This document shows, one piece after another, positions 11,289 through 61,256 of a stretch of 64,000 bases of DNA. Both the position numbers and the translations under genes were made by a program. Position 1 is the stretch's first letter. Each line of letters opens with the position of its first letter. The notes below the pieces were generated by a model. The model was not told the DNA's origin and ran no database searches. It worked only from the letters and a program-made list of their open reading frames with translations. Source of the DNA: an uncultured Actinomycetes bacterium (GTDB lineage: Bacteria; Actinomycetota; Actinomycetes; Mycobacteriales; SCTD01); the NCBI GenBank assembly GCA_963784675.1, contig CAWASE010000013.1, forward strand, positions 226,660 to 290,659, read 5' to 3'.

Positions 11289-12884
11289 ATGCGCGTGCTC
11301 ACGAGTGCGATCGATCCGCGCAGCGACGCAGCGGTCGCCGCGGAGGCCGTGCAACAGAGCCTGGTCGACGACCTGCAGCAGCGGTTGGCCACGACCGCCC
11401 TCGGTGGGTCCGCCTCCTCCCGCGAGCGCCATCTCGCTCGAGGAAAGCTGTTGCCCCGCGAACGCGTCGACACCCTGCTCGATCCCGGCAGCCCCTTCCT
11501 GGAGCTCTCGCCGCTGGCTGCGAACGGGCTCTACGACGACGAGGCACCGGGCGCGGGGGTGATCACCGGCATCGGGCGGATCTCGGGGCGCGAGTGCGTG
11601 GTGGTCGCCAACGACGCCACGGTCAAAGGCGGCACCTACTACCCGCTGACGGTCAAGAAGCACCTGCGCGCGCAGGAGGTGGCGCTGCACAACCGGCTGC
11701 CGTGCGTGTACCTCGTCGACTCGGGCGGTGCGTTCCTGCCGCGCCAGGACGAGGTGTTTCCCGACCGCGAGCACTTCGGCCGCATCTTCTTCAACCAGGC
11801 CACGATGTCCGCGCAGGGCATCCCGCAGATCGCCGCGGTGCTCGGCTCCTGCACCGCAGGCGGGGCCTACGTCCCGGCGATGTCGGACGAGGCCGTCATC
11901 GTGCGGGACCAGGGCACCATCTTCCTGGCCGGTCCGCCGCTGGTGAAGGCCGCGACCGGCGAGGTCGTCACCGCTGAGGACCTGGGCGGCGGACTGCTGC
12001 ACTCGCGCACCAGCGGCGTCACCGACCACCTCGCCGACGACGACACGCACGCGCTCGAGCTGGTCCGGTCGATCGTCGCGGGGCTGGGGCCGCGGACGCC
12101 CCGACCCTGGGAGGTGCAGGCGTCGGAGGCTCCGTCCGTCGACCCGTCGACGCTGTACGGAGTGCTCCCGGCCGACAGCCGGACGCCGTACGACGTCCGT
12201 GAGGTCATCGCGCGGATCGTGGACGGCAGCCGATTCCAGGAGTTCAAGGCCGAGTACGGACCGACGCTGGTCACCGGCTTCGCGCACGTGCACGGCCACC
12301 CCGTCGGCATCATCGCCAACAACGGCGTGCTCTTCGGCGAGAGCGCTCTGAAGGGGGCGCACTTCATCGAGCTGTGCGACCAGCGCGCGGTGCCGCTGGT
12401 CTTCCTGCAGAACATCACGGGCTTCATGGTGGGCCGGGAGTACGAGGCGGCGGGTATCGCCAAGCACGGGGCCAAGATGGTGAACGCGGTCGCCACCGCG
12501 CGCGTACCCAAGCTCACCGTCGTGGTCGGCGGATCGTTCGGCGCGGGCAACTACTCGATGTGCGGGCGGGCCTACTCCCCGCGCTTCCTGTGGATGTGGC
12601 CCGGGGCCCGGATCTCGGTGATGGGCGGCGAGCAGGCGGCGTCGGTGCTGGCGACCGTCCGCCGCGACCAGCAGCCGGACTGGCCGGCCGAGGACGAGGA
12701 AGCCTTCAAGCAGCCGATCCGGCAGCAGTACGAGGACCAGGGCAATCCCTACTACTCCACCGCGCGGTTGTGGGACGACGGGGTCATCGACCCCAAGGAC
12801 ACCCGGACCGTGCTCGGTCTCGCGCTGGCCGCCTGTGCGAACGCCCCGCTGGCCCCGGCCGGCTACGGCATCTTCCGGATGTGA
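11289..12884 (+). CDS. accD1: methylcrotonyl-CoA carboxylase carboxyltransferase (beta) subunit
   Basis: [27 protein letters not shown]...[15 protein letters not shown]...[16 protein letters not shown]...NITGFMVG. Cluster synteny with Mtb accD1-accA1-fadE19. Confidence 0.85.
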
Positions 12885-30753: not shown

Positions 30754-32133
30754 ATGGCCCTGATGCCCATCACCGACTCGATGTTCATGCTGCCCGAGTC
30801 GCGCGAGCAGCCCATGCACGTCGGCGGGCTCCAGCTGTTCGACCTGCCGCCCGGCGCCGACAAGCACTGGCTCGGCGACCTGTACCGGCAGGCCATCCAG
30901 AGCGACGAGGTCGACCCGGTCTTCCGGCGGCGGCCGCACCGGTCGGCCCTGACGCTCGGTCAGTGGACCTGGCAGGACGAGCCCGGCATCGACCTCGAGC
31001 ACCATGTGCGGCACTCGGCGCTGCCGGAGCCGGGTCGCGTCCGCGAGCTGCTGGCGCTCACCTCCCGCCTGCACGGGACCCTGCTGGACCGGAAGCGGCC
31101 GCTGTGGGAGGCGCACCTCATCGAGGGGCTGGAGGGCGACCGCTTCGCCGTCTACATCAAGCTGCACCACGCCCTGATGGACGGGGTCTCGGCGCTGGCC
31201 CTGCTGCAGCGCAGCCTCACCACCGACCCGGACGACCGCAGCGTGCCTGGGCCGTGGGCGCCACGCTCGGTCGAGCGGGCTCGGCGGAGCTCGGGCCCGC
31301 TGTCCGCGCTCTCGGTGCCCCTGTCGATGCCGCGCCTGGCGCTCGGGATGGCGGGCGACGTGGTCGGGCTGGTGCCGACGCTGGCCCGGCTCGCCAGCGA
31401 CGCGCTGCGCTCGCAGACGACGGCGCTCCCGATGCAGGCGCCCCGCTCGATGTTCAACGTCGGCATCACGGGCAGCCGTCGCTTCGCCGCCGAGTCGTGG
31501 TCCATCGAGCGCATCAAGCGCGTGGCGAAGGCCGCCGACGCCACCCTCAACGACGTCGTGCTGGCGATGTGCAGCGGCGCCCTGCGCGCCTACCTGCTCG
31601 ACCTGGACGCCCTGCCGGACAGCCCGCTCATCGCCATGACCCCGGTGTCGCTGCGCAACGAGGACACCCCCGAGCACAGCAACGCCGTCGGCACGATCCT
31701 GTGCAACCTCGCGACCGACCTGGAGAACCCCGGGGCCCGGCTGGTGGCCGTGCGGGCCTCGATGCTGCAGGGCAAGGCCGTGCTGGCGGGCCTGAACCAG
31801 AACCAGGTCACGGCGCTGTCGGCGGTGGTGATGGCGCCGCTGCTGCTCAACTCCGTGCTGGCGCTGCACCGGGTGTCGCCCCCGCCGTTCAACCTGGTCA
31901 TCTCCAACGTGCCCGGCCCGAAGGACCCGCTCTACTGGAACGGCGCGCGGCTGCGCGGTACCTATCCGCTGTCCATCCCGCTGGACGGCCAGGCGCTGAA
32001 CATCACGCTGACCAGCTACGACGGCCAGCTGCACGTCGGGCTGATCGGGTGCCGTCGCACCGTGCCGCGGCTGCAGACGCTGCTGGTGCACCTCGAGCAG
32101 GCGCTCCAGGAGCTGGAGAGCGTCGTGCTCTGA
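30754..32133 (+). CDS. wax ester synthase/diacylglycerol acyltransferase (WS/DGAT)
   Basis: Active-site HHALMDG and the N-terminal sequence PMHVGGLQLF, which I recognise as typical of this family. Confidence 0.85.
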   Translation: MALMPITDSMFMLPESREQPMHVGGLQLFDLPPGADKHWLGDLYRQAIQSDEVDPVFRRRPHRSALTLGQWTWQDEPGIDLEHHVRHSALPEPGRVRELLALTSRLHGTLLDRKRPLWEAHLIEGLEGDRFAVYIKLHHALMDGVSALALLQRSLTTDPDDRSVPGPWAPRSVERARRSSGPLSALSVPLSMPRLALGMAGDVVGLVPTLARLASDALRSQTTALPMQAPRSMFNVGITGSRRFAAESWSIERIKRVAKAADATLNDVVLAMCSGALRAYLLDLDALPDSPLIAMTPVSLRNEDTPEHSNAVGTILCNLATDLENPGARLVAVRASMLQGKAVLAGLNQNQVTALSAVVMAPLLLNSVLALHRVSPPPFNLVISNVPGPKDPLYWNGARLRGTYPLSIPLDGQALNITLTSYDGQLHVGLIGCRRTVPRLQTLLVHLEQALQELESVVL

Positions 32134-32205: not shown

Positions 32206-32898
32206 TCAGGCGTTCGCGACCGTGGCCTGGCTCGGCGTCTGGACCGAGGTCGGTGACTGCTGCGGCGAGGGGGTCGTCGCCGCGTCGGTGTCGGGGCCGG
32301 GCCCGTCCCCGTGCTTGCTGGCGGGGCCGTGCCCGCCTCCGTGGTGGCCGCGACCGCCCCGCGGCGGTCCGGTCCGATCGACCCGGTCCGCCACCTCTGC
32401 GGCGAGACCGGCCTTGCGGGCGTCGGCCTGCGCCTGCGTGAGACGACCCGCGGCGACCGCCTCGGTCAGCCGCTGCTGGCCGGCGGCGACGAGCGAGTCG
32501 ATCAGGGCCTGCTTGGCGACGCCGTGAGCAGCAGCCACCTGGGCCAAGGTCTTGCCGGACTGCAGCTCGGTGCGCAGCTGGGCCGGCGTCAGGCCGAGCA
32601 GGTCGGCGATCTCCTGGGCGCCGGCTTCCCGTCCGCCGGGTCCGGCGGCGCGCTGGTCTCCGGCGGCGCGCTGGGGCGGCGTCGCCTGCAAGGTGCTCGC
32701 GACCTTGTCGGCCTGCGCCTGGGTGAGGGTGCCGTCGGTGACGAGACCCTTGAGGGCGTCCGTCAGCGCCGACAGCCGGCCGCCCACGCCCGATCCGGGG
32801 TCGGCCTGAGCGGCAGCGGGCAGCAGCACGGCCCCGGCCAGCCCGAGGGAGCCGGCCAGGGCGGTGCCGGCGACCGTGGTCACGAGGCGCTTGCGCAT
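32206..32898 (-). CDS. secreted LTxxQ-motif protein with Gly/His-rich tail (paralog of 39453-40115)
   Basis: The ATG at 32898 is preceded by GGAGGA. Signal peptide ...LLPAAAQA-DPG. Motifs TLTQAQADKV, GLTPAQLRTEL and RLTQAQADAR. The tail reads PPRGGRGHHGGGHGPASKHGDGPGPD. Confidence 0.7.
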   Translation of the reverse strand: MRKRLVTTVAGTALAGSLGLAGAVLLPAAAQADPGSGVGGRLSALTDALKGLVTDGTLTQAQADKVASTLQATPPQRAAGDQRAAGPGGREAGAQEIADLLGLTPAQLRTELQSGKTLAQVAAAHGVAKQALIDSLVAAGQQRLTEAVAAGRLTQAQADARKAGLAAEVADRVDRTGPPRGGRGHHGGGHGPASKHGDGPGPDTDAATTPSPQQSPTSVQTPSQATVANA

Positions 32899-32961
32899 GG
32901 GTCCTCCGTCGTCAGGGCCCGCGTCGTCGCGGGCGCTCTGGCGTCCACTGTGGCCGCGCAC

Positions 32962-32990
32962 CCTGTGACGCGGCTGTGACGGGCCTGTGA
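32962..32990 (-). promoter_or_regulatory. three 11-nt-phased PhoP-box-like heptamers (TCACAGG, TCACAGC, TCACAGG on the minus strand)
   Basis: The + strand reads cctgtgacgcggctgtgacgggcctgtga. The heptamer T residues are at 32990, 32979 and 32968. The element lies 63 nt upstream of the ATG at 32898, in the same orientation as the gene. Confidence 0.55.
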
Positions 32991-33006
32991 GTGCGGTGCC
33001 GGTCGC

Positions 33007-33956
33007 TCACAGGGCCCGCGGCGCCCACGCGACCGCTGCCGCCGCGGCGCCGACCGTGGCCAGCAGCGCGAGCCCGGCCGCTGGCGCGCCGACCGGCTGT
33101 CGTTCGGTGGTGGTCCCGAGACTGCTGCCGATGTCGGCATAGACCGCGGTGAGCTGCTCGCCGTCGGCCGCCTCGTACGCGCTGCCGTCGGTGCCGGCGG
33201 CGAGCTGGGCGAGGGCGGGGGCGTCGACCGGGACGCCGCAGGGACCGCCGGTCGACGGTGACGGTGCCCTGCTGGGTGCCGTACGCGATGGTCGAGACGG
33301 GGACGTGCGCCGCCGTGGCCAGGGCCGCCGCGGCGTCGATGCTGCGGCCGGCGGTGTTCGCGCCGTCGGACAGCAGGACGATGTGCGCGGGGACCGGGTC
33401 GCCGCCACCAGGGACGGCGTCGACGGCCGACAGGGAGGCTGCGACGGCTTCGCCGACGGCGGTGCCGTTGCCCGAGCCGCAGCGGTGCCGATGGCCCGCT
33501 CGACAGCGAGGTGCTCCTGCGTGGCGGGGACGACGACGGCGGCGGTGCCGGAGAAGGCGACCAGGCCGACGTTGAAGCGCGCAGGCAGCCCGTCGACGAA
33601 GGACTGGGCGGCCGCCTTGGCGGCGGTGAAGCGGTCCGGAGCGACATCGGTCGCCGCCATCGACAGCGAGACGTCCAGGGCCACCACGACGGTGGCCCGC
33701 TCGCGTGGCACCTGGACCTCGGCGGACGGGTCGGCGAACGCCGCCGTCGACCCGGCCAGCGCCGTCAGCACCAGAGCCGCGCCGGACGTGCCGGCGCCAG
33801 CCGAGCCGGGGCGCGACCGACGCAGCAGGTCCAGGCCGGTGAGCCGGACGGCATAGCGGCTGCGCCGGCGTTGCGCGAGCACGTACGCCGCGCCGAGGGC
33901 GACGACGACGAGAGCAGCCAGAGCCGCCCGGGATGGTCGAAGACGAGCCCGGTCAT
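33007..33956 (-). pseudogene. VWA domain-containing protein (BatA-like), reading frame broken about 3 times
   Basis: MTGLVFDHPGRLWLL..., MIDAS VVVALDVSLSMAATDVAPDRFTAAK, FNVGLVAFSG, then GNGTAVGEAV...HIVLLSDGANTAG...VSTIAYGT in another frame, then VPVDAPALAQLAAGTDGSAYEA back in the first. It is collinear with the intact paralog at 35975-36949. Frame changes lie near 33905, 33485 and 33253. Confidence 0.6.
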
Positions 33957-34891
33957 GCCGCACCCGCCCGGACGCGCGGCGCCGCGGGTGCGGCGCCGGA
34001 CGGTGAGGAAACGGGCGAGCTGCGGGAGCCAGTCGGTCGTCGGTCAGCACGACCAGGTGCCCGGCGCCGGCGCGCGTACCGCCTGGCGCTGCGCGCTCGC
34101 CCGCTCTGCGGCCGCGGCGGCATAGCGCGCACGCGTCCGGGCGTCCGTGCGCAGGGTGACCCCGGCCCCGCCGGTCCGGGATCGGCGAGCTCAGGACGCC
34201 GACCGCGGGCAGGCTCGAGCTCGCGGCGGTCGACGACCTGGGCGACGAGCGACGTCGTGCCGGGCGGCGAGCAGCCGCAGCGGGCGCGCCAGTCTCGACC
34301 GGGTCGAGCAGGTCGCTGACCACGACCACCATGCCGCGGCGGCGCGGGCGGGCGACCACCGCCCGCGGGCCGGCGGCGAGGTCGAGGGGGCCCTCGCGGT
34401 GCGACGCGGGGCTGGCGCAGCAGCGCCGGACGAGCGCGCGTGGACCCGGCGCGTCCGGCGCGGGCCGGCAGCGTGGCGCACGGCGTGCCCGTCGACCACC
34501 AGGGCCCCGACGCGGTCGCCGGGCCGGGTGCCCAGGTGCAGGAACGCCGCGGCGAGCGCCAGCGCGACCTCGCGCTTCTCCGCGGTGGCCGTCCCGAAGG
34601 ACATGGACGCGGAAAGGTCTACCAGCACGGTGGTCTCGAGCTCCCGCTCGGCCACGGTCATCCGTACGTGCGGGGTCGTGCTGCGGGCGGTCACGGCCCA
34701 GTCGATGCGGCGGACGTCGTCACCGGGTGCATAGGCGCGGGCCTCGGCGGCCTCGGTACCGGGCCCCGGCAGAGAGCCCAGGTGGTCGCCCTGCACGAGC
34801 CCGTCCAACCGTCGGGAGACGTCGTACGGGAGCCGGCGCAGCCGGGCGGGCGCGGCGAGAGGGGGCGGCGGCAAGGCCGTCGGCGCGCCTC

Positions 34892-37037: not shown

Positions 37038-37077
37038 TCACAGCAAGCTCACAGCAAAGGCCCAGACTGGTGACAGG
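37038..37077 (+). promoter_or_regulatory. PhoP-box direct repeats in the divergent promoter (TCACAGC-N4-TCACAGC, plus in-phase GCCCAG and TGACAGG)
   Basis: Read directly: gcTCACAGCaagcTCACAGCaaaggcccagactggTGACAGGcc. The heptamers start at 37038, 37049, (37060) and 37071. The element lies 66 nt upstream of the RR ATG and 89 nt from the vwa1 ATG. Confidence 0.65.
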
Positions 37078-37142
37078 CCACCGCCAGACGATGGTGCGGC
37101 AGGCCGGGGACCCGGCGGCGAACCGCGTACCGAGGAGCTCGC

Positions 37143-37877
37143 ATGACCACCGCCACCCGCCCGGACAGCGAAGCCCGGCTGCTCGTCGTGGACGACGAGC
37201 CCAACATCCTGGAGCTGTTGTCGGTGAGCCTGCGCTTCGCTGGCTTCGACGTCGCGACGGCGACGAACGGCGTGGACGCCCTGAACCGGGCGCGCGAGTT
37301 CCGTCCCGAGCTGATGGTGCTCGACGTGATGATGCCCGGCATGGACGGGTTCGAGGTGGCCCGGCAGCTGCGCAGCACCGGCGACCAGGTGCCGGTGCTG
37401 TTCCTGACCGCCAAAGACGCCACCGAGGACCGTGTGCAGGGCCTGACCCTGGGCGGCGACGACTACGTCACCAAGCCGTTCAGCCTGGAGGAGGTCGTGG
37501 CCCGCATCCGCGCGGTGCTGCGTCGCACCGGCGGAGCGGCCGCACCGGACCCCGTCCAGAGCCGCTCGCGACTGTCCTACGCCGACATCGTCCTGGACGA
37601 CGACACGCACGAGGTGTGGAAGGGGGAGCAGGAGGTCGACCTGTCCCCGACGGAGTTCAACCTGCTGCGGTACCTGCTGCAGAACCCGGGTCGGGTGCTG
37701 TCCAAGCGGCAGATCCTCGAGCACGTCTGGAACTACGACTTCGGTGGTGACGGCAACGTCGTGGAGTCCTACATCTCCTACCTGCGCCGCAAGGTCGACA
37801 CCGCCGAGCCCCGGCTGCTGCACACGGTGCGCGGGGTCGGCTACGTCCTGCGGCTGCCGAAGTCGCCGGGCGCGTGA
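37143..37877 (+). CDS. phoP: OmpR/PhoB-family response regulator, closest in my reading to M. tuberculosis PhoP (Rv0757)
   Basis: ARLLVVDDEPNILELLSVSLRFAGFDVATATNG...MVLDVMMPGMDGFEV...LTLGGDDYVTKPFSLEEVVARIRAVLRR...LSPTEFNLLRYL...NVVESYISYLRRKVD...LHTVRGVGYVLR. This is near-collinear with Mtb PhoP as I remember it. GAGGAG RBS. Confidence 0.8.
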   Translation: MTTATRPDSEARLLVVDDEPNILELLSVSLRFAGFDVATATNGVDALNRAREFRPELMVLDVMMPGMDGFEVARQLRSTGDQVPVLFLTAKDATEDRVQGLTLGGDDYVTKPFSLEEVVARIRAVLRRTGGAAAPDPVQSRSRLSYADIVLDDDTHEVWKGEQEVDLSPTEFNLLRYLLQNPGRVLSKRQILEHVWNYDFGGDGNVVESYISYLRRKVDTAEPRLLHTVRGVGYVLRLPKSPGA

Positions 37878-39352
37878 GCCCCGGCCCGGACGTCGCTCCG
37901 AGGACGGGGCGGCTCTCGCGGGTGCCGCTGCGCACCCAGCTCGTGGCCCTGCTGCTCGGCACCGTCGCCCTGGTCGTCGCGCTGACCAGCGTCGCGGGCA
38001 GCGTCGCCCTGCACGACTACCTGGTGAACCGCATCGACGTGCAGCTCGCCGCGGCGCTCGAGGATCCCGGCGGCCCCGGCGGTGCCGGGTTCGGGCGACC
38101 GCGTCGCGGTGGGGGGCCCGACGAGGGCGGCCGGGACGTCGCCGTCACGACCCTCGACTACGACGCCGAGGGGCGGCTGTCCCCCCGCGACGTCGCTGAG
38201 CTCGCTGCCTTCGGCGGGCCGGAGGTCGACGACCCGACGGCGCTGCCCGACGGGCCCTCCGACGTGCCCGCCGTCTCCGGTGCCGGCAGCTGGCGGGTGC
38301 TGGCCGGCGACGGCTCGCGCACCGGCGGGGTCCGCGTGGTCGCCGTGTCGCTGGACGGGGTGCGCGACACCGGCTCGCAGCTGCTGCTCATCAACGCTGC
38401 CGTCGGCCTGATCGCCTTGGCCGGGGCGGGCGTGCTGGCGTGGGCCGCGGTGCGCCGCAGCCTCGCGCCGCTGGTGTCGGTGGAGGAGACCGCCGAGGCG
38501 ATCGCGGCAGGAGACCTGACCCGTCGGGTCCGCGAGGGAGACCCGCGCACCGAGGTCGGCTCGCTCGCTGCCTCTTTCAACAGCATGGTCGACCGCTTCG
38601 AGAGCGCGTATTCGGCCCAGCAGCAGTCGGAGTCGGCGGCGCGCGCGTCGGAGGAGCGGATGCGTCGTTTCGTCGGCGACGCCAGCCACGAGCTGCGCAC
38701 GCCGTTGACGTCCATCCGCGGGTTCGCCGAGCTCTTCCGGCAGGGAGCGGCGCGCGAGCCCGAACAGCTCGCCCGGGTGATGCGTCGCATCGAGGACGAG
38801 GCAGCCCGGATGGGGCTGCTGGTCGAGGACCTGCTGCTGCTCGCGCGGCTGGACCAGCAACGGCCGCTGCGACAGGAGACGGTCGACCTGCTGTCGGTCG
38901 TGGCCGACGTCGTGCACGACGCGGCGACGGTGTACGAGGACCACACCGTGCGCCTGGTCGCCCCCACCGGGCCGGGGCTGCCGGAGGTCGTCGGCGACGA
39001 CCCGCGGCTGCGGCAGGTGTTCAGCAACCTGGTCACCAACGCCGTCACGCACACCGCTCGCGGGACCACGGTCGACGTCGCGCTGCACGCCGACCACGTC
39101 ACCGTCACCGTCACCGTCACCGACGACGGAGCCGGCATGGCCCCGGACGTCGCGGAGCGCGTGTTCGAGCGGTTCTACCGCGCCGACGCCTCCCGCTCGC
39201 GCACGGCGCCGCAGGCCAGCGGCAGCGGCCTGGGCCTGTCCATCGTGGCTGCCCTGGTGGCGGCGCACGGGGGCAGCGTCGAGGTCACCAGCACGGTCGA
39301 CGTCGGTACGTGCTTCCTGGTGCGGCTGCCGGCCCGGCCCGTCCAGGACTGA
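37874..39352 (+). CDS. phoR: sensor histidine kinase (PhoR-like: TM-loop-TM, HAMP, HisKA, HATPase_c)
   Basis: GTGA overlap with the RR gene. Two TM segments flank an extracytoplasmic loop of about 150 aa. H-box RRFVGDASHELRTPLTSIRGFAELFRQGAA. DDGAGM and GSGLGLSIV. Confidence 0.8.
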   Translation: MSPGPDVAPRTGRLSRVPLRTQLVALLLGTVALVVALTSVAGSVALHDYLVNRIDVQLAAALEDPGGPGGAGFGRPRRGGGPDEGGRDVAVTTLDYDAEGRLSPRDVAELAAFGGPEVDDPTALPDGPSDVPAVSGAGSWRVLAGDGSRTGGVRVVAVSLDGVRDTGSQLLLINAAVGLIALAGAGVLAWAAVRRSLAPLVSVEETAEAIAAGDLTRRVREGDPRTEVGSLAASFNSMVDRFESAYSAQQQSESAARASEERMRRFVGDASHELRTPLTSIRGFAELFRQGAAREPEQLARVMRRIEDEAARMGLLVEDLLLLARLDQQRPLRQETVDLLSVVADVVHDAATVYEDHTVRLVAPTGPGLPEVVGDDPRLRQVFSNLVTNAVTHTARGTTVDVALHADHVTVTVTVTDDGAGMAPDVAERVFERFYRADASRSRTAPQASGSGLGLSIVAALVAAHGGSVEVTSTVDVGTCFLVRLPARPVQD

Positions 39353-39367
39353 CAGCCGGGTCACAGC
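39350..39367 (+). promoter_or_regulatory. PhoP-box-like direct repeat TGACAGC-N4-TCACAGC
   Basis: It starts at the phoR stop codon and lies 86 nt upstream of the ATG at 39453. The spacing is 11 nt, and the orientation is the same as at the phoP promoter. Confidence 0.45.
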
Positions 39368-39452
39368 AGCAGCGGGGACTCCTGCCAGCCGGGAGGACGA
39401 GGTTGATGACATCGCAGGCCGACCAGGCCCGCCCCGCTCCCAGGAGAACCTC

Positions 39453-40115
39453 ATGCGCACCAAGCTCGCCACCGCCGCTCTGATCGGCTCCCTCGGCCTG
39501 ACCGGCGTCGCCGGCGCGGCCCTGCTCTCCCCGGCCGTGTCCTACGCGGCGACCGGTGCCGCGACCGCCGTCTCGGACCGCGCCGCCTCTCTCGCCAGCA
39601 CGCTGAAGGGTCTGGTGAGCGACGGCACCATCACCCAGGCGCAAGCCGACAAGGTCGCCTCCACGCTCGCCGCGGCGGCTCCGGCCCGCGGTGACGGCGG
39701 CCCCGGGCACGGCCGCGACGGAGGCGGCGGCGGCCGGGTCGACCAGGCCGCTGCCGCCACCGCGCTGGGCCTGTCCGCCGACGCGCTGCGGACGCAGCTG
39801 GACGCGGGCAAGACCCTCGCGCAGGTCGCCGACGCCCAGGGCGTGGACCAGGCGACGCTGGTGAAGGCGCTGGTCACCTCGGCGAAGGGGCGGCTGGCCG
39901 ACCAGGTCGCCTCCGGCCGGATCACCCAGGCGCAGGCCGACACCCGGGCCAGCACCCTGCAGGCCGAGATCACCGAGCACCTGGACGACGTCTGCCTGCC
40001 CGGGGGCGGCGGCCCGGGCCACGGCCCGCGCGGCAACGACGGTGACGCCGACGACGCCCCGGCCACCACCGCGTCGCCCGCTCCCGCGACGGCGGGCGCC
40101 GGCAGCGCCGCCTGA
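39453..40115 (+). CDS. secreted LTxxQ-like protein with Gly/His/Asp-rich tracts (paralog of 32206-32898)
   Basis: AGGAGA RBS. Signal peptide ...LLSPAVSYA-ATG. LKGLVSDGTITQAQADKVASTL is nearly identical to the paralog. GKTLAQVADAQGVDQATLVKALV...RITQAQADTR. Tracts GDGGPGHGRDGGGGG and PGGGGPGHGPRGNDGD. Confidence 0.7.
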   Translation: MRTKLATAALIGSLGLTGVAGAALLSPAVSYAATGAATAVSDRAASLASTLKGLVSDGTITQAQADKVASTLAAAAPARGDGGPGHGRDGGGGGRVDQAAAATALGLSADALRTQLDAGKTLAQVADAQGVDQATLVKALVTSAKGRLADQVASGRITQAQADTRASTLQAEITEHLDDVCLPGGGGPGHGPRGNDGDADDAPATTASPAPATAGAGSAA

Positions 40116-57783: not shown

Positions 57784-58506
57784 ATGGGGCTGGGCAAGCG
57801 GTTGTCCGCGCTGTTCGCGCGCGAGCAGGACCCGCAGGAGGTCCTGGACGCGTCCTACGACCGGCAGCAGCAGCTCCTGCAGCAGACCCGTCGCGGCGCG
57901 GCCGACGTCGCGACGTCCGCACGCCGCCTCGAGCTGCAGCTGCGCCAGCTGGAGACCGAGGCCGACTCCCTGCACGACGACGCCACCGCTGCGGTGCGCG
58001 GTGGCGACGACGACCGTGCGCGCGCCCTGCTCACGCGCCGGGCCGGGCTGCTCCAGCAGGTCGAGGAGCTGCGCCCGCAGCAGCAGCAGCTGGCGACGCA
58101 GCAGGAGACGCTCGAGACCGCCGTGTCCAGGCTGGCGGCGAAGGTCGAGGCGTTCCGCGGGCAGAAGGAGGCGCTGTCGGCCGGCCTCACCGCCGCGCAG
58201 GCGCAGGAGAAGGTCGGACAGGCGCTGGCCGGCGTCGACGAAGAGCTGGGCGACGTGGGCTTCGCGCTGCAGCGGGCGCGCGAGCGCACCGACGCCGCGC
58301 AGGCCCGGGCCGGAGCGCTCGAGGAGCTCGCCGAGATCAGCAGCACCAGCCGCCTCACGCCGGGGGAGGCCGCGCAGCGCACCCTCGCCCAGCTCTCCGG
58401 CGGCGGTGTCGAGGACGAGCTGGCGGCGCTCCGAGGCGATCGCGCCCTCCCCGGCCCGCTCGGGCTGCCGCCGACCTCCACGACCAGCGCCCAGGAGCAG
58501 CAGTGA
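57784..58506 (+). CDS. pspA: PspA/IM30 family protein
   Basis: Coiled-coil sequence DPQEVLDASYDRQQQLLQQTRRGAADVATSARRLELQLRQLE...AKVEAFRGQKEALSA. Confidence 0.85.
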   Translation: MGLGKRLSALFAREQDPQEVLDASYDRQQQLLQQTRRGAADVATSARRLELQLRQLETEADSLHDDATAAVRGGDDDRARALLTRRAGLLQQVEELRPQQQQLATQQETLETAVSRLAAKVEAFRGQKEALSAGLTAAQAQEKVGQALAGVDEELGDVGFALQRARERTDAAQARAGALEELAEISSTSRLTPGEAAQRTLAQLSGGGVEDELAALRGDRALPGPLGLPPTSTTSAQEQQ

Positions 58507-58781: not shown

Positions 58782-59725
58782 GCAGCCGCCGCGGCCGGTT
58801 CGCCGCCGACAGCGGGCTGACCTCGCGGATGCTGCTCGTGCTCTTCCTGCTCGGGCTGCTGTACGTCGTCGCGATCGGTGCGCTCATCGGCCTCGGGATC
58901 AGCCCGGTGGTGGTGCTCGTGGTGGTCGGCGGGTTCTTCGTCTTCCAGTACGTCGCCAGCGACAAGATCGCGCTGTACGCGATGAACGGTCGGCTGGTCG
59001 AGCCTGCGGAGGCCGCTGAGCTGCACGGGGTCATCGACCGGCTCTGCGCGCTGTCGGACACCCCGAAGCCGCGCGTGGCCGTCGCCGACAGCGACGTGCC
59101 CAACGCCTTCGCCACCGGGCGCAGCCCGTCCAAGGCCGTCGTCTGCGTGACCACCGGCCTGCTGCGGCGGCTCGAGCCGGACGAGCTGGAGGGCGTGCTC
59201 GCGCACGAGCTGTCGCACGTCGCGCACCGCGACGTCGCCGTGATGACCATCGCCTCCTTCCTCGGCGTCCTGTCCGGGCTCATCACCCGCTTCGTGCTGC
59301 AGTCGATGGCCTTCGGCGGCTTCGGCCAGGGCTACGGCGGTCGCGGCTACGGTCGCGACCGCAGCGACAACCGCGACAGCAACAGCGGCATCCCGATCGT
59401 CATCGCCGTGATCGTGGTGTCGGCCCTGGTCTACGCCGTCAGCTTCCTGCTCATCCGGGCGCTGTCGCGCTACCGCGAGCTGTCGGCCGACCGCACGGCC
59501 GCGCAGCTCACCGGCCGGCCGTCCTCGCTCGCCTCGGCCCTGACGAAGGTCACCGGCGAGATGGCCCGCGTCCCCACCCGCGACCTGCGCGAGGCCGAGC
59601 CGTTCAACGCCTTCTTCTTCACCCCGGCGCTGGCGCAGGGCTTCAGCCTGTCCTCGCTGTTCTCCACCCACCCGTCGCTGGACACCCGGCTGGCGCAGCT
59701 GGCGAAGATGTCGGCGACGTCATGA
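58778..59725 (+). CDS. htpX: zinc metalloprotease HtpX (M48)
   Basis: N-terminal TM pair, PNAFATG, HELSHVAHRD (HExxH), YRELSADRTAAQLTG, and THPSLDTRL. Confidence 0.9.
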   Translation: MSSRRGRFAADSGLTSRMLLVLFLLGLLYVVAIGALIGLGISPVVVLVVVGGFFVFQYVASDKIALYAMNGRLVEPAEAAELHGVIDRLCALSDTPKPRVAVADSDVPNAFATGRSPSKAVVCVTTGLLRRLEPDELEGVLAHELSHVAHRDVAVMTIASFLGVLSGLITRFVLQSMAFGGFGQGYGGRGYGRDRSDNRDSNSGIPIVIAVIVVSALVYAVSFLLIRALSRYRELSADRTAAQLTGRPSSLASALTKVTGEMARVPTRDLREAEPFNAFFFTPALAQGFSLSSLFSTHPSLDTRLAQLAKMSATS

Positions 59726-60291
59726 CGTTCCTCGACGCGCTGCTGGGGCGCAAGAAGCCGGTGCCGCCGGACCTCGACGCCCTGTTCGCGCTGCCGTCGG
59801 CGGCGGTCGGCCTGCAGGCCTCCCTGGCGCTCGTGCCGACCGGCCTCGGGTCGGTCTGCATCAAGCCGGTGGAGGGTGCCGCCTTCACCCGCACCCAGAC
59901 CGAGGTGCAGGCGCTGCTGCGCGTCGACGACACCTCCCGCGTCGACGTCACGCGCGACGACTACGGCTATGCCTGGACGACGGTCGCCGCCGACCGGAGC
60001 CGGCTGCCCGACGTCGTCAGTGCGCTGCACGCGGCCAACACCACCTACGCCCGCGACGAGTTCGGGACCGGCCTGCTCTGCTCGCTGGTGGGCTTCCAGG
60101 GCCCGGACGGGCGAGCGGTCGCGCTGGTCTACCTCTACAAGCGGGGGACGTTCTACCCGTTCGCCCCGCGCGGCGCACAGCAGCGCGACACGGCCCTGGA
60201 GCTGCAGGTGCGCGCCGCGATCGGTGCTGACCTCAAGATCGAGCCGGACCTGTCCCGCTGGTTCCCGGTCTGGGGTGCTCCGGGGCTGTGA
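59722..60291 (+). CDS. PspA-associated protein (PspAB-like), conserved hypothetical
   Basis: MTFLDALLGRKKPVPPDLDALFALPSAA...YLYKRGTFYPFAP... ATGA overlap with htpX. It is the last gene of the operon. Confidence 0.6.
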   Translation: MTFLDALLGRKKPVPPDLDALFALPSAAVGLQASLALVPTGLGSVCIKPVEGAAFTRTQTEVQALLRVDDTSRVDVTRDDYGYAWTTVAADRSRLPDVVSALHAANTTYARDEFGTGLLCSLVGFQGPDGRAVALVYLYKRGTFYPFAPRGAQQRDTALELQVRAAIGADLKIEPDLSRWFPVWGAPGL

Positions 60292-60380
60292 CGTCCCGGG
60301 CTGTGACGTCCCGGGCTGTGACGTCCGGGCGTGACGTTCGGGCTGTGACGTCCGCGCGGTGACGTCCGCGCGGTGACCCG
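60285..60380. repeat. 7-unit tandem repeat array (13-15-nt period, core GTGACG; four units carry GCTGTGA, which is TCACAGC on the minus strand)
   Basis: gctgtgacgtcccgg gctgtgacgtcccgg gctgtgacgtccgg gcgtgacgttcgg gctgtgacgtccgcgc ggtgacgtccgcgc ggtgacccg. It fills the whole gap between two convergent stop codons (60291 and 60381). Confidence 0.85.
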
Positions 60381-61256
60381 TCAGAGCGTCCCGACGTCGT
60401 GGCCGAGCAGCTGCAGCGCCAGCGCGCCGGCGCCGATCAGCGGCGCGTCCCGGCCGAGCCCCACCGGCGCGATGCGGCAGCCGTCCGTCGAGCTCAACCG
60501 GCTGGTCGCGCGTAGGCCCCGGCTGGCGGCCGAGAAGAACGGTCCGCCGTAGCCGAGGGCCACCGACCCGCCGATGGCGACCAGCGACAGGTCCAGCAGG
60601 TTCACCACCGACGCCAGCCCCTGACCCAGCAGCCGGCCGGCCCGCAGCACCTCCGCCATCGGCGCCCGGGCGGCCGGCGCGCCGGTGCGGGCGGCGATCG
60701 CCGTGCCGCTGATCTCGGCCTCCAGGCACCCCTGCCCGCCGCAGGAGCACGGCGCACCGTCCGGCACCACGACCACGTGACCGATGAAGCCGGCGTTGCC
60801 TGCCCGGCCGTGCAGCAGCCGTCCGTCGAGCACGAGCCCGCCGCCGACGCCGGTGGACACCACCATCGCCAGGTAGTCGCGGGTGCCTGCGGCCGCGCCC
60901 TTCCACCCCTCGCCGACGGCCAGCGCCTTCGCGTCGCCGTCGACGACCACCGGCATCCGGAGCGCCCGCTCCAGCCGGGCGTGCAGCGGGAACTGCCGCC
61001 AGGCGGGCATGTTCAGCGGCGAGACCGCCTCGCCTCCCCGGGTCATCGGACCCGTCGTCCCGACTCCGGCGGCCGCGACCCCCTCGGGCGAGACCTGCTG
61101 CACCGCTGACAGGACGGCGGCCAGCAGCACCTCGGGATCCTCGCCCCGCGGCGTCAGGGCGGTCGCCGAGCGGTGCAGGACACCGTCGCCGTCGAGGATG
61201 CCGGCGGCGATCTTCGTGGCGCCGATGTCGATCGCCAGGACGGTCTGCGCGGGCAC
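60381..61256 (-). CDS. ROK family sugar kinase
   Basis: LAIDIGATKIAAG, VVDGDAKALAVGE, GAGNAGFIGH, and zinc motif CSCGGQGCLE. Confidence 0.85.
   Translation of the reverse strand: MPAQTVLAIDIGATKIAAGILDGDGVLHRSATALTPRGEDPEVLLAAVLSAVQQVSPEGVAAAGVGTTGPMTRGGEAVSPLNMPAWRQFPLHARLERALRMPVVVDGDAKALAVGEGWKGAAAGTRDYLAMVVSTGVGGGLVLDGRLLHGRAGNAGFIGHVVVVPDGAPCSCGGQGCLEAEISGTAIAARTGAPAARAPMAEVLRAGRLLGQGLASVVNLLDLSLVAIGGSVALGYGGPFFSAASRGLRATSRLSSTDGCRIAPVGLGRDAPLIGAGALALQLLGHDVGTL

Follow-up and report, generated by a model that had tools for sequence, protein, structure and literature searches.

An 11-bp-phased array of PhoP-type units upstream of a secreted-protein gene in an uncultured actinobacterium: a probable activator site with a conserved promoter geometry

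PhoP (Rv0757), which together with its kinase PhoR forms a master virulence regulator of Mycobacterium tuberculosis, recognizes head-to-tail copies of a 7-bp unit: it binds TCACAGC-N4-TCACAGC as a tandem dimer that tolerates no spacer other than 4 bp, and on three- and four-motif arrays it assembles as trimers and tetramers with Kd values of 4.6 and 2.2 nM, respectively (PMC4832192). The bases are contacted by Asn212, Val213, Glu215, Ser216, Tyr217 and Tyr220, together with Arg237 of the wing (He et al., PMC4832192). Here we describe a site of this type in a 64-kb stretch of high-GC DNA (~73% G+C) from contig CAWASE010000013.1 of an uncultured actinobacterium, hereafter referred to as the window. 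Three TCACAG(G/C) units occupy positions 32962-32990 of its minus strand, upstream of a gene for a small secreted protein (LT1) and 4.2 kb from the gene for a PhoP-like response regulator (RR). We consider it probable that this array is a tandem three-unit site for the PhoP-type RR and the activator site of LT1's own promoter, with binding, activation and the transcription start site (TSS) all predicted from the DNA itself. Sites of this kind are well known and a single one would be expected biology; what is new is the instance at 32962-32990, the conserved family of target genes and the fixed promoter grammar.

The window array shares with the sites of M. tuberculosis PhoP the 7-bp unit, the head-to-tail orientation, the strict 4-bp spacer and the extension to three or four units, and in both organisms an array is present at the regulator's own promoter (PMC4832192). 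The promoter-proximal units also overlap the -35 position in the M. tuberculosis complexes (PMC11825685), in the same way as is predicted for the window. The differences lie in the host, an uncultured, Frankiales-like high-GC actinobacterium for which binding is predicted; in the seventh base of the unit, which is mostly G upstream of LT-family genes whereas the published consensus is TCACAGC; and in the target, since LT genes are uncharacterised, are not described as PhoP targets in the papers that we found, and are represented in the window by two paralogues (LT1 and LT2) flanking the two-component system (TCS). The orthologous PhoR of Corynebacterium glutamicum controls phosphate-starvation genes; its sites at the pstSCAB and phoRS promoters (Schaaf & Bott 2007, summarised in PMC3353115) have the form CCTGTGAA-N3-CCTGTGAA, corresponding to the TCACAG-type motif in reverse complement, with TTCACAGG recurring at an 11-bp period. 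In that system linker length matters for binding and an autoregulatory site lies at the TCS promoter, as it does in the window, whereas the C. glutamicum sites contain two units rather than the three or four of the window arrays, with which no phosphate genes are associated (PMC3353115). The PHO boxes of Streptomyces coelicolor PhoP (GTTCACC, 11-nt period; cited in PMC4832192) similarly occur in variable numbers of units overlapping the -35 region, but they have another unit sequence and a regulator of a different clade.

Between the stop codon of the preceding gene, vwa2, and the LT1 ATG (32898) the minus strand reads CTCACAGGcccGTCACAGCcgcGTCACAGGgtg. Its TCACAG cores are located at 32985-32990, 32974-32979 and 32963-32968, with the T residues at 32990, 32979 and 32968, giving a period of exactly 11 nt; both spacers are exactly 4 bp long and the seventh bases of units 1 to 3 are G, C and G. 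An earlier account of this DNA made from the letters alone (the sequence-only reading) had reported these three minus-strand units, and the 63 nt lying between the end of unit 3 (32962) and the ATG, with coordinates that hold base for base. It had also likened them to an array at the phoP promoter, and the plus strand at 37038-37077 does read TCACAGC-aagc-TCACAGC-aaag-GCCCAGA-ctgg-TGACAGG. The ATG at 32898 is the true start of LT1, being preceded by GGAGGA at 32907-32902, and the equivalent M(R/K) opens each of the 30 family members aligned. A fourth in-phase unit was sought at both flanks of the array and gave no match (CGGCAC upstream, GCGGCC downstream), and a nearby CCACAGT is out of phase and contains the -10-like hexamer discussed below.

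The TCACAG hexamer as such is not enriched across the window (16 found, 27.5 expected), and phased dimers carrying two mismatches occur about as often as chance predicts (6 versus 4.5). Exact TCACAG-N5-TCACAG dimers, on the other hand, were found three times, as compared to none in 100 Markov simulations and an expectation of 0.0016 for independent, identically distributed bases, and dimers with at most one mismatch four times where 0.24 would be expected; the signal is carried only by exact or near-exact phased copies. All four of the latter dimers are intergenic, fall within 6.4 kb around the genes for the RR and its kinase, and are oriented with the downstream gene. When periods from 7 to 20 were scanned, exact dimers appeared solely at 11 and 15, those of period 15 belonging to a separate array at 60.3 kb. 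Three-unit arrays scoring at least 16/21 were restricted to 32962-32990 (20/21) and the RR promoter (null mean 0.23), and an exact three-unit array is expected ~1.7e-7 times per window. A chance or selfish short tandem repeat devoid of regulatory function, to which the second TCACAG-containing tandem array at 60.3 kb (14-15-nt period) might lend some credence, is difficult to reconcile with this expectation and with the maintenance of phase, orientation and position across 51 non-identical loci; the conservation data described below already effectively refute this possibility, to which we attach next to no weight.

The RR encoded in the window matches M. tuberculosis PhoP (PDB 3r0j/5ed4) over its full length with an E value of 2e-101, the next best solved structure being PrrA (9e-58). 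With ~70% identity overall, it has the same base-contacting residues: its helix GNVVESYISYLRRK and wing RGVGY keep the equivalents of Asn212, Val213, Glu215, Ser216, Tyr217, Tyr220 and Arg237. The sequence-only reading had regarded the units as binding sites for a PhoP-like RR, and this proposal gains in silico support from the RR homology, the contact residues, the published site, the conservation of the array and its fixed spacing to the -10 hexamer.

We fetched 80 loci encoding relatives of the RR. In Frankiaceae, Mycobacterium, Streptomyces, Nocardioides, Arthrobacter and other lineages a phased TCACAG dimer precedes the RR gene by 50-200 nt, and a four-unit array often follows the stop codon of the kinase gene. 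The motif precedes its own RR gene in 26 of the 36 loci with Asn at the 212-equivalent position and in 7 of the 43 without it (odds ratio 13, p = 7e-7), so that motif presence, judged from these sequences, tracks the recognition helix of the RR. Only one of the 80 loci, L047 from a metagenome-assembled genome (MAG) of Acidimicrobiales, encodes a homologue of the secreted protein near the RR, and conservation was for this reason tested through the secreted-protein family instead. The homologue in L047 comes immediately after the kinase gene, with a variant dimer, TCCCAGG-N4-TCCCAGG (11689-11707), ahead of it, while Gly replaces Asn at the 212-equivalent of the RR (SGVVENY), which suggests that helix and motif co-vary.

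The LT1 family comprises 899 detectable homologues, mostly from Frankiales, Mycobacteriales and other actinobacterial (Actinomycetota) MAGs. We examined 80 further metagenomic loci of the family, 64 loci being testable for strict dimers, and made lag counts in 51 non-identical upstream regions; start codons in the metagenomic loci were assigned heuristically. Ten of the 64 testable loci have a strict dimer between -75 and -101, as opposed to a single background match in 583 kb. With the unit relaxed to N[CG][ACT]CAG, the pairs of units counted in the 51 upstream regions numbered 42 at a lag of 11 nt, 29 at 22 nt and 22 at 33 nt, while every other lag gave at most 6; at the same three lags the opposite strand and coding sequence gave none and random pieces ~0.2-0.5. 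Self-identity calculated without reference to any pattern likewise shows peaks at lag 11 (0.366) and lag 22 (0.355), its baseline being ~0.265. The arrays consist of 2-4 units and start 77-108 nt before the start codon. One long contig with no linkage to a TCS (L083) carries three exact units whose first T lies at -92, the same as in the window, and another (L082) a four-unit array; in the Motilibacter locus (L081), by comparison, the strict motif is lacking and a weak relaxed chain is all that can be seen.

Linkage of the LT gene to the TCS is variable: the two are neighbours in the window, in L047 the LT gene comes after that for the kinase, in L143 it points away from the RR gene and in L082 it lies 9 kb off, and no PhoP-like RR was found in the DNA examined for the remaining loci. 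The phased array is conserved upstream of the LT family in many actinobacteria, even where the gene is unlinked to the regulator. A small secreted family of ~900 homologues, of which ~50 promoters were compared, thus carries a PhoP-type array of fixed geometry in many actinobacterial lineages and is sometimes attached to the TCS, which bears on the questions of which PhoP targets are ancestral and what the kinase senses.

The position of the arrays relative to the predicted start of transcription appears to be constrained as well. In 23 of 39 LT-family arrays a hexamer of the form NAnnnT begins at an offset of exactly 16 nt from position 1 of the last unit (binomial P ~1e-31, background 0.016), and in 8 further arrays of the 39 the offset is 27 nt (16 + 11). 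In arrays located downstream of kinase genes in other lineages the hexamer is found at offset 16 in 11 of 11 cases, and the ATG follows 6-8 nt after it; since such a distance is the signature of a leaderless transcript, the hexamer is likely to be a genuine -10 element. All three arrays of the window obey the 16-nt rule (Table 1). With the LT1 hexamer, CACAGT, placed at -12 to -7, the TSS is predicted at ~32940 +/- 1 and the leader would be ~42 nt long. This grammar, 11-bp-period units with the last one 16 nt before NAnnnT, could be used for regulon prediction in uncultured actinobacteria.

From these data a mechanism can be proposed. The phosphorylated RR would bind the three units head-to-tail, one protomer per 11-bp turn, at approximately -50, -39 and -28, and the two promoter-proximal protomers would stand in for a -35 element, bringing RNA polymerase to CACAGT, the weak -10 hexamer. 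A comparable arrangement is seen by cryogenic electron microscopy (cryo-EM) in activation complexes of PhoP with RNA polymerase, where the sites of the two downstream protomers overlap the -35 element, with displacement of sigma region 4 (PMC11825685). LT1 would accordingly be transcribed from its own RR-dependent promoter, independently of read-through from vwa2, and it is very likely, on the evidence of the array and its geometry, that the gene possesses such a promoter. The same RR would autoregulate through the array at 37038-37077 and drive LT2 through the one at 39350-39389.

A number of points weigh against this proposal. CACAGT is a weak -10 candidate, and a generic sigma-70 scan returned no promoter and no recognisable -35 element. 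M. tuberculosis PhoP reportedly represses its own promoter through similar repeats (an observation ascribed to Gupta et al. 2006), and for that reason the boxes alone do not tell activation from repression. The relaxed pattern for the unit was picked after the data had been seen, although the pattern-free test agrees with it, and the metagenomic loci are phylogenetically non-independent. Binding of PhoP trimers has been shown in vitro only (PMC4832192), and the cryo-EM activation complexes contain dimers, tetramers and hexamers, while the window array has three units; their scaffolds are different promoters, to which the present layout is likened in outline (PMC11825685).

The array might instead be an operator, with the RR at -50 to -22 blocking RNA polymerase and repressing LT1. 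The place of the last unit, between the -35 and -10 positions, is one where the polymerase could be occluded, and autoregulation of M. tuberculosis phoP is, as mentioned, reported to be negative; PhoP is also able to act as a repressor (PMC11825685). Against repression, the lack of a recognisable -35 combined with a weak -10 is typical of activator-dependent promoters and fits one here, the 11 leaderless targets and the RR promoters have one and the same distance from array to -10, and the a1/b1 sites overlap the -35 in the same manner in activation complexes (PMC11825685). We therefore regard repression as unlikely.

A further alternative is that the site is real but bound by another OmpR-family regulator encoded elsewhere in the genome. 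Regulators of this family generally bind direct repeats phased at 10-11 bp, the analysis covered 64 kb of the genome, and a second RR clade is likewise associated with TCACAG arrays. The local RR, however, has all the PhoP contact residues, its own promoter bears the same array, the four phased dimers of the window all cluster around it, and no second OmpR-family RR is encoded within the 64 kb, which together make a different regulator very unlikely. The second clade (helix ANVVELY) is found in Streptomyces, Nocardioides and others (L038, L040, L044, L045, L046, L049, L050, L055, L057, L062 and L071), and its loci carry a four-unit TCACAG-type array after the kinase gene, ~2.1-3.1 kb after the RR start (~7.9 kb in L038). 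The array precedes a leaderless gene for a family-2 glycosyltransferase or a PMT-like membrane glycosyltransferase, which it is predicted to drive. Our literature search found no paper naming this Streptomyces-type system.

LT1 and LT2 share, in addition to the helices listed in Table 1, a conserved LGxTxxELRTxLxxGKTLAQ segment, and the AlphaFold model of the LT protein consists of helices throughout, its confident core spanning residues 90-175. The sole Pfam match is a sub-threshold one to DUF2680 (17.9 bits, cutoff 25) and an NCBIfam search yielded nothing; Foldseek comparison of the model with the PDB gave no match with E below 1, and a profile of the family searched against the PDB did not retrieve CpxP, Spy or ZraP even at E <= 10. 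Membership in the CpxP/Spy/ZraP group accordingly found no support from Pfam, NCBIfam or the PDB profile search, and the label "LTxxQ" used in the sequence-only reading is to be taken as descriptive, no relationship to these proteins having been detected in these searches.

The organization of the locus is nonetheless reminiscent of the Escherichia coli CpxRA system, an envelope-stress TCS that induces the adjacent cpxP gene, whose product, a periplasmic LTXXQ protein, feeds back on the kinase. LT1 is a small protein, helical in its model, with a signal peptide, encoded near a TCS and downstream of an RR-type array from which its induction is predicted; the logic is thus alike, with predicted direct repeats of an OmpR-family RR before an adjacent gene for a small helical secreted LTxxQ-like protein. 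The LT and RR genes of L143 point away from each other, in the manner of cpxP and cpxRA. For the LT proteins, by contrast, the sequence, profile and Foldseek searches detected no relationship to CpxP, Spy or ZraP, and most family members are unlinked to a TCS, so that a CpxP-like role is an analogy. LT proteins are candidates for a conserved output or accessory protein of the PhoPR-type system. A stronger version, in which they would be dedicated extracytoplasmic partners of such systems, induced by the RR and feeding back on or assisting the sensor domain of the kinase by CpxP-like logic with an unrelated fold, and in which the family would mark the ancestral core of the actinobacterial regulon of the M. 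tuberculosis PhoP type, whose signal is debated, is speculative and seems to us rather unlikely. In L143 (1248-1558) the RR is PhoP-like (58% identity), and phased arrays face both ways in the shared intergenic region.

Table 1. Positions of the elements and genes considered in the text (window coordinates; regulatory roles are predicted)
Feature	Coordinates	Strand	Remarks
LT1	32206..32898	-	Secreted protein, all-helical as modelled; 230 aa, signal peptide, two GxLTQAQAD helices, Gly/His-rich linkers
Shine-Dalgarno GGAGGA of LT1	32902..32907	-	Read from sequence
-10-like hexamer CACAGT	32947..32952	-	Offset from position 1 of unit 3 exactly 16 nt
Unit 3, TCACAGG	32962..32968	-	Promoter-proximal; predicted at ~-28 to -22
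Unit 2, TCACAGC	32973..32979	-	Predicted at ~-39 to -33, overlapping the -35 element position
Unit 1, TCACAGG	32984..32990	-	Predicted at ~-50 to -44 relative to the inferred TSS; also 3' arm of the hairpin
Stable RNA hairpin	32979..33019	-	At the vwa2 3' end, from the inverted copy and unit 1
Inverted copy CTCACAGG	33006..33013	+	Overlaps the vwa2 stop (TGA 33009-33007, minus strand)
vwa2	33007..33990	-	VWA-domain gene upstream of the array, disrupted by frame changes
RR-promoter array	37038..37092	+	Four units (TCACAGC, TCACAGC, GCCCAGA, TGACAGG) at 37038-37077; -10-like GACGAT at 37087-37092
RR	37143..37877	+	OmpR/PhoB-family response regulator, ~70% identical to M. tuberculosis PhoP
Histidine kinase	37874..39352	+	Cognate kinase (HAMP, HisKA, HATPase_c)
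LT2 array	39350..39404	+	TGACAGC, TCACAGC, a degenerate unit and TGCCAGC at 39350-39389; -10-like GAGGTT at 39399-39404
LT2	39453..40115	+	Paralogue of LT1 (47% identity); second predicted RR-regulated secreted-protein gene

The sequence-only reading had noted a fourth, inverted copy of the unit at 33006-33013 on the plus strand, across the vwa2 stop codon, with which the sequence agrees, and an 8-bp inverted repeat that could equally act as a terminator hairpin for vwa2. The repeat is present, positions 32984-32991 pairing with the inverted copy as CCTGTGAG-N14-CTCACAGG, but its length had been understated: extended to GGGCC(C)TGTGAG-N14-CTCACAGGCCC, it comprises 11 bp with one bulge. The hairpin is indeed stable (dG -23.9 kcal/mol, z -3.28, none of 200 shuffles as good) and stands exactly at the vwa2 stop, and since an inverted 8-mer within 60 nt has a chance probability of ~1e-3, the inverted copy is probably not accidental. 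As a terminator it fares less well, as a terminator scan detected no canonical one and the stem is followed by GUCACAGCCGCG in place of a U-tract, while the wider region folds no better than its shuffles (z -0.66). The inverted copy was absent from the other LT-family loci in which it was sought, in contrast to the direct repeats, which are conserved. That the element is mainly a 3'-end structure of the vwa operon, terminating or stabilising the vwa2 transcript, with the other units incidental, would leave units 2 and 3 and the 11-nt phasing unexplained, and we judge it highly improbable. A secondary, locus-specific function of the hairpin that coexists with the binding site is possible, if doubtful; the most plausible interpretation of the structure itself is a locus-specific 3' end of the vwa transcript that may re-use unit 1. 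Cooperative use of the inverted unit by PhoP oligomers, which are head-to-tail, is not expected.

The minus-strand genes upstream of LT1 are vwa1, a MoxR-type AAA ATPase gene, a DUF58 gene and vwa2. Between 33007 and 34895 (minus strand) full-length domains of DUF58 and vwa2 are obtained only by changing frame several times, the VWA domain of vwa2 aligning to that of its paralogue vwa1 in two frames (33774-33511 and 33466-33251). Other long genes of the window appear intact, and the frameshifts may represent pseudogenes or assembly indels. We also considered the MoxR/VWA operon as a conserved neighbour of the TCS and rejected it, there being one distant match among the 80 RR loci. In L132 (8648-9562) a MoxR protein 81% identical to that of the window is encoded ~3 kb from an LT homologue, on the opposite strand, and this locus probably belongs to an organism fairly closely related to that of the window, in which the locus has been rearranged. 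On the other side of LT1, a gene for a WS/DGAT wax-ester synthase / diacylglycerol acyltransferase (30754-32133) converges on its 3' end, which makes LT1 the last gene of its transcription unit.

The LT1 and LT2 arrays both abut the 3' end of the preceding gene, the former through the inverted copy that overlaps the vwa2 stop and the latter at the kinase stop, the first unit of the LT2 array (TGACAGC) starting with the kinase TGA (39350-39352). The tandem array at 60279-60377 consists of ~6.5 copies of a 14-15-nt unit, GACGTCACAGCCCGG, the core of which, GTCACAGCC, equals a PhoP-type unit. It was rejected as a further binding site on account of its period, which is wrong for cooperative PhoP binding, and of its location between convergent genes, namely those for a PspA-associated protein B (59722-60291, plus strand) and a ROK-family protein (60381-61256, minus strand). 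A PspA/IM30 gene lies nearby at 57784-58506.

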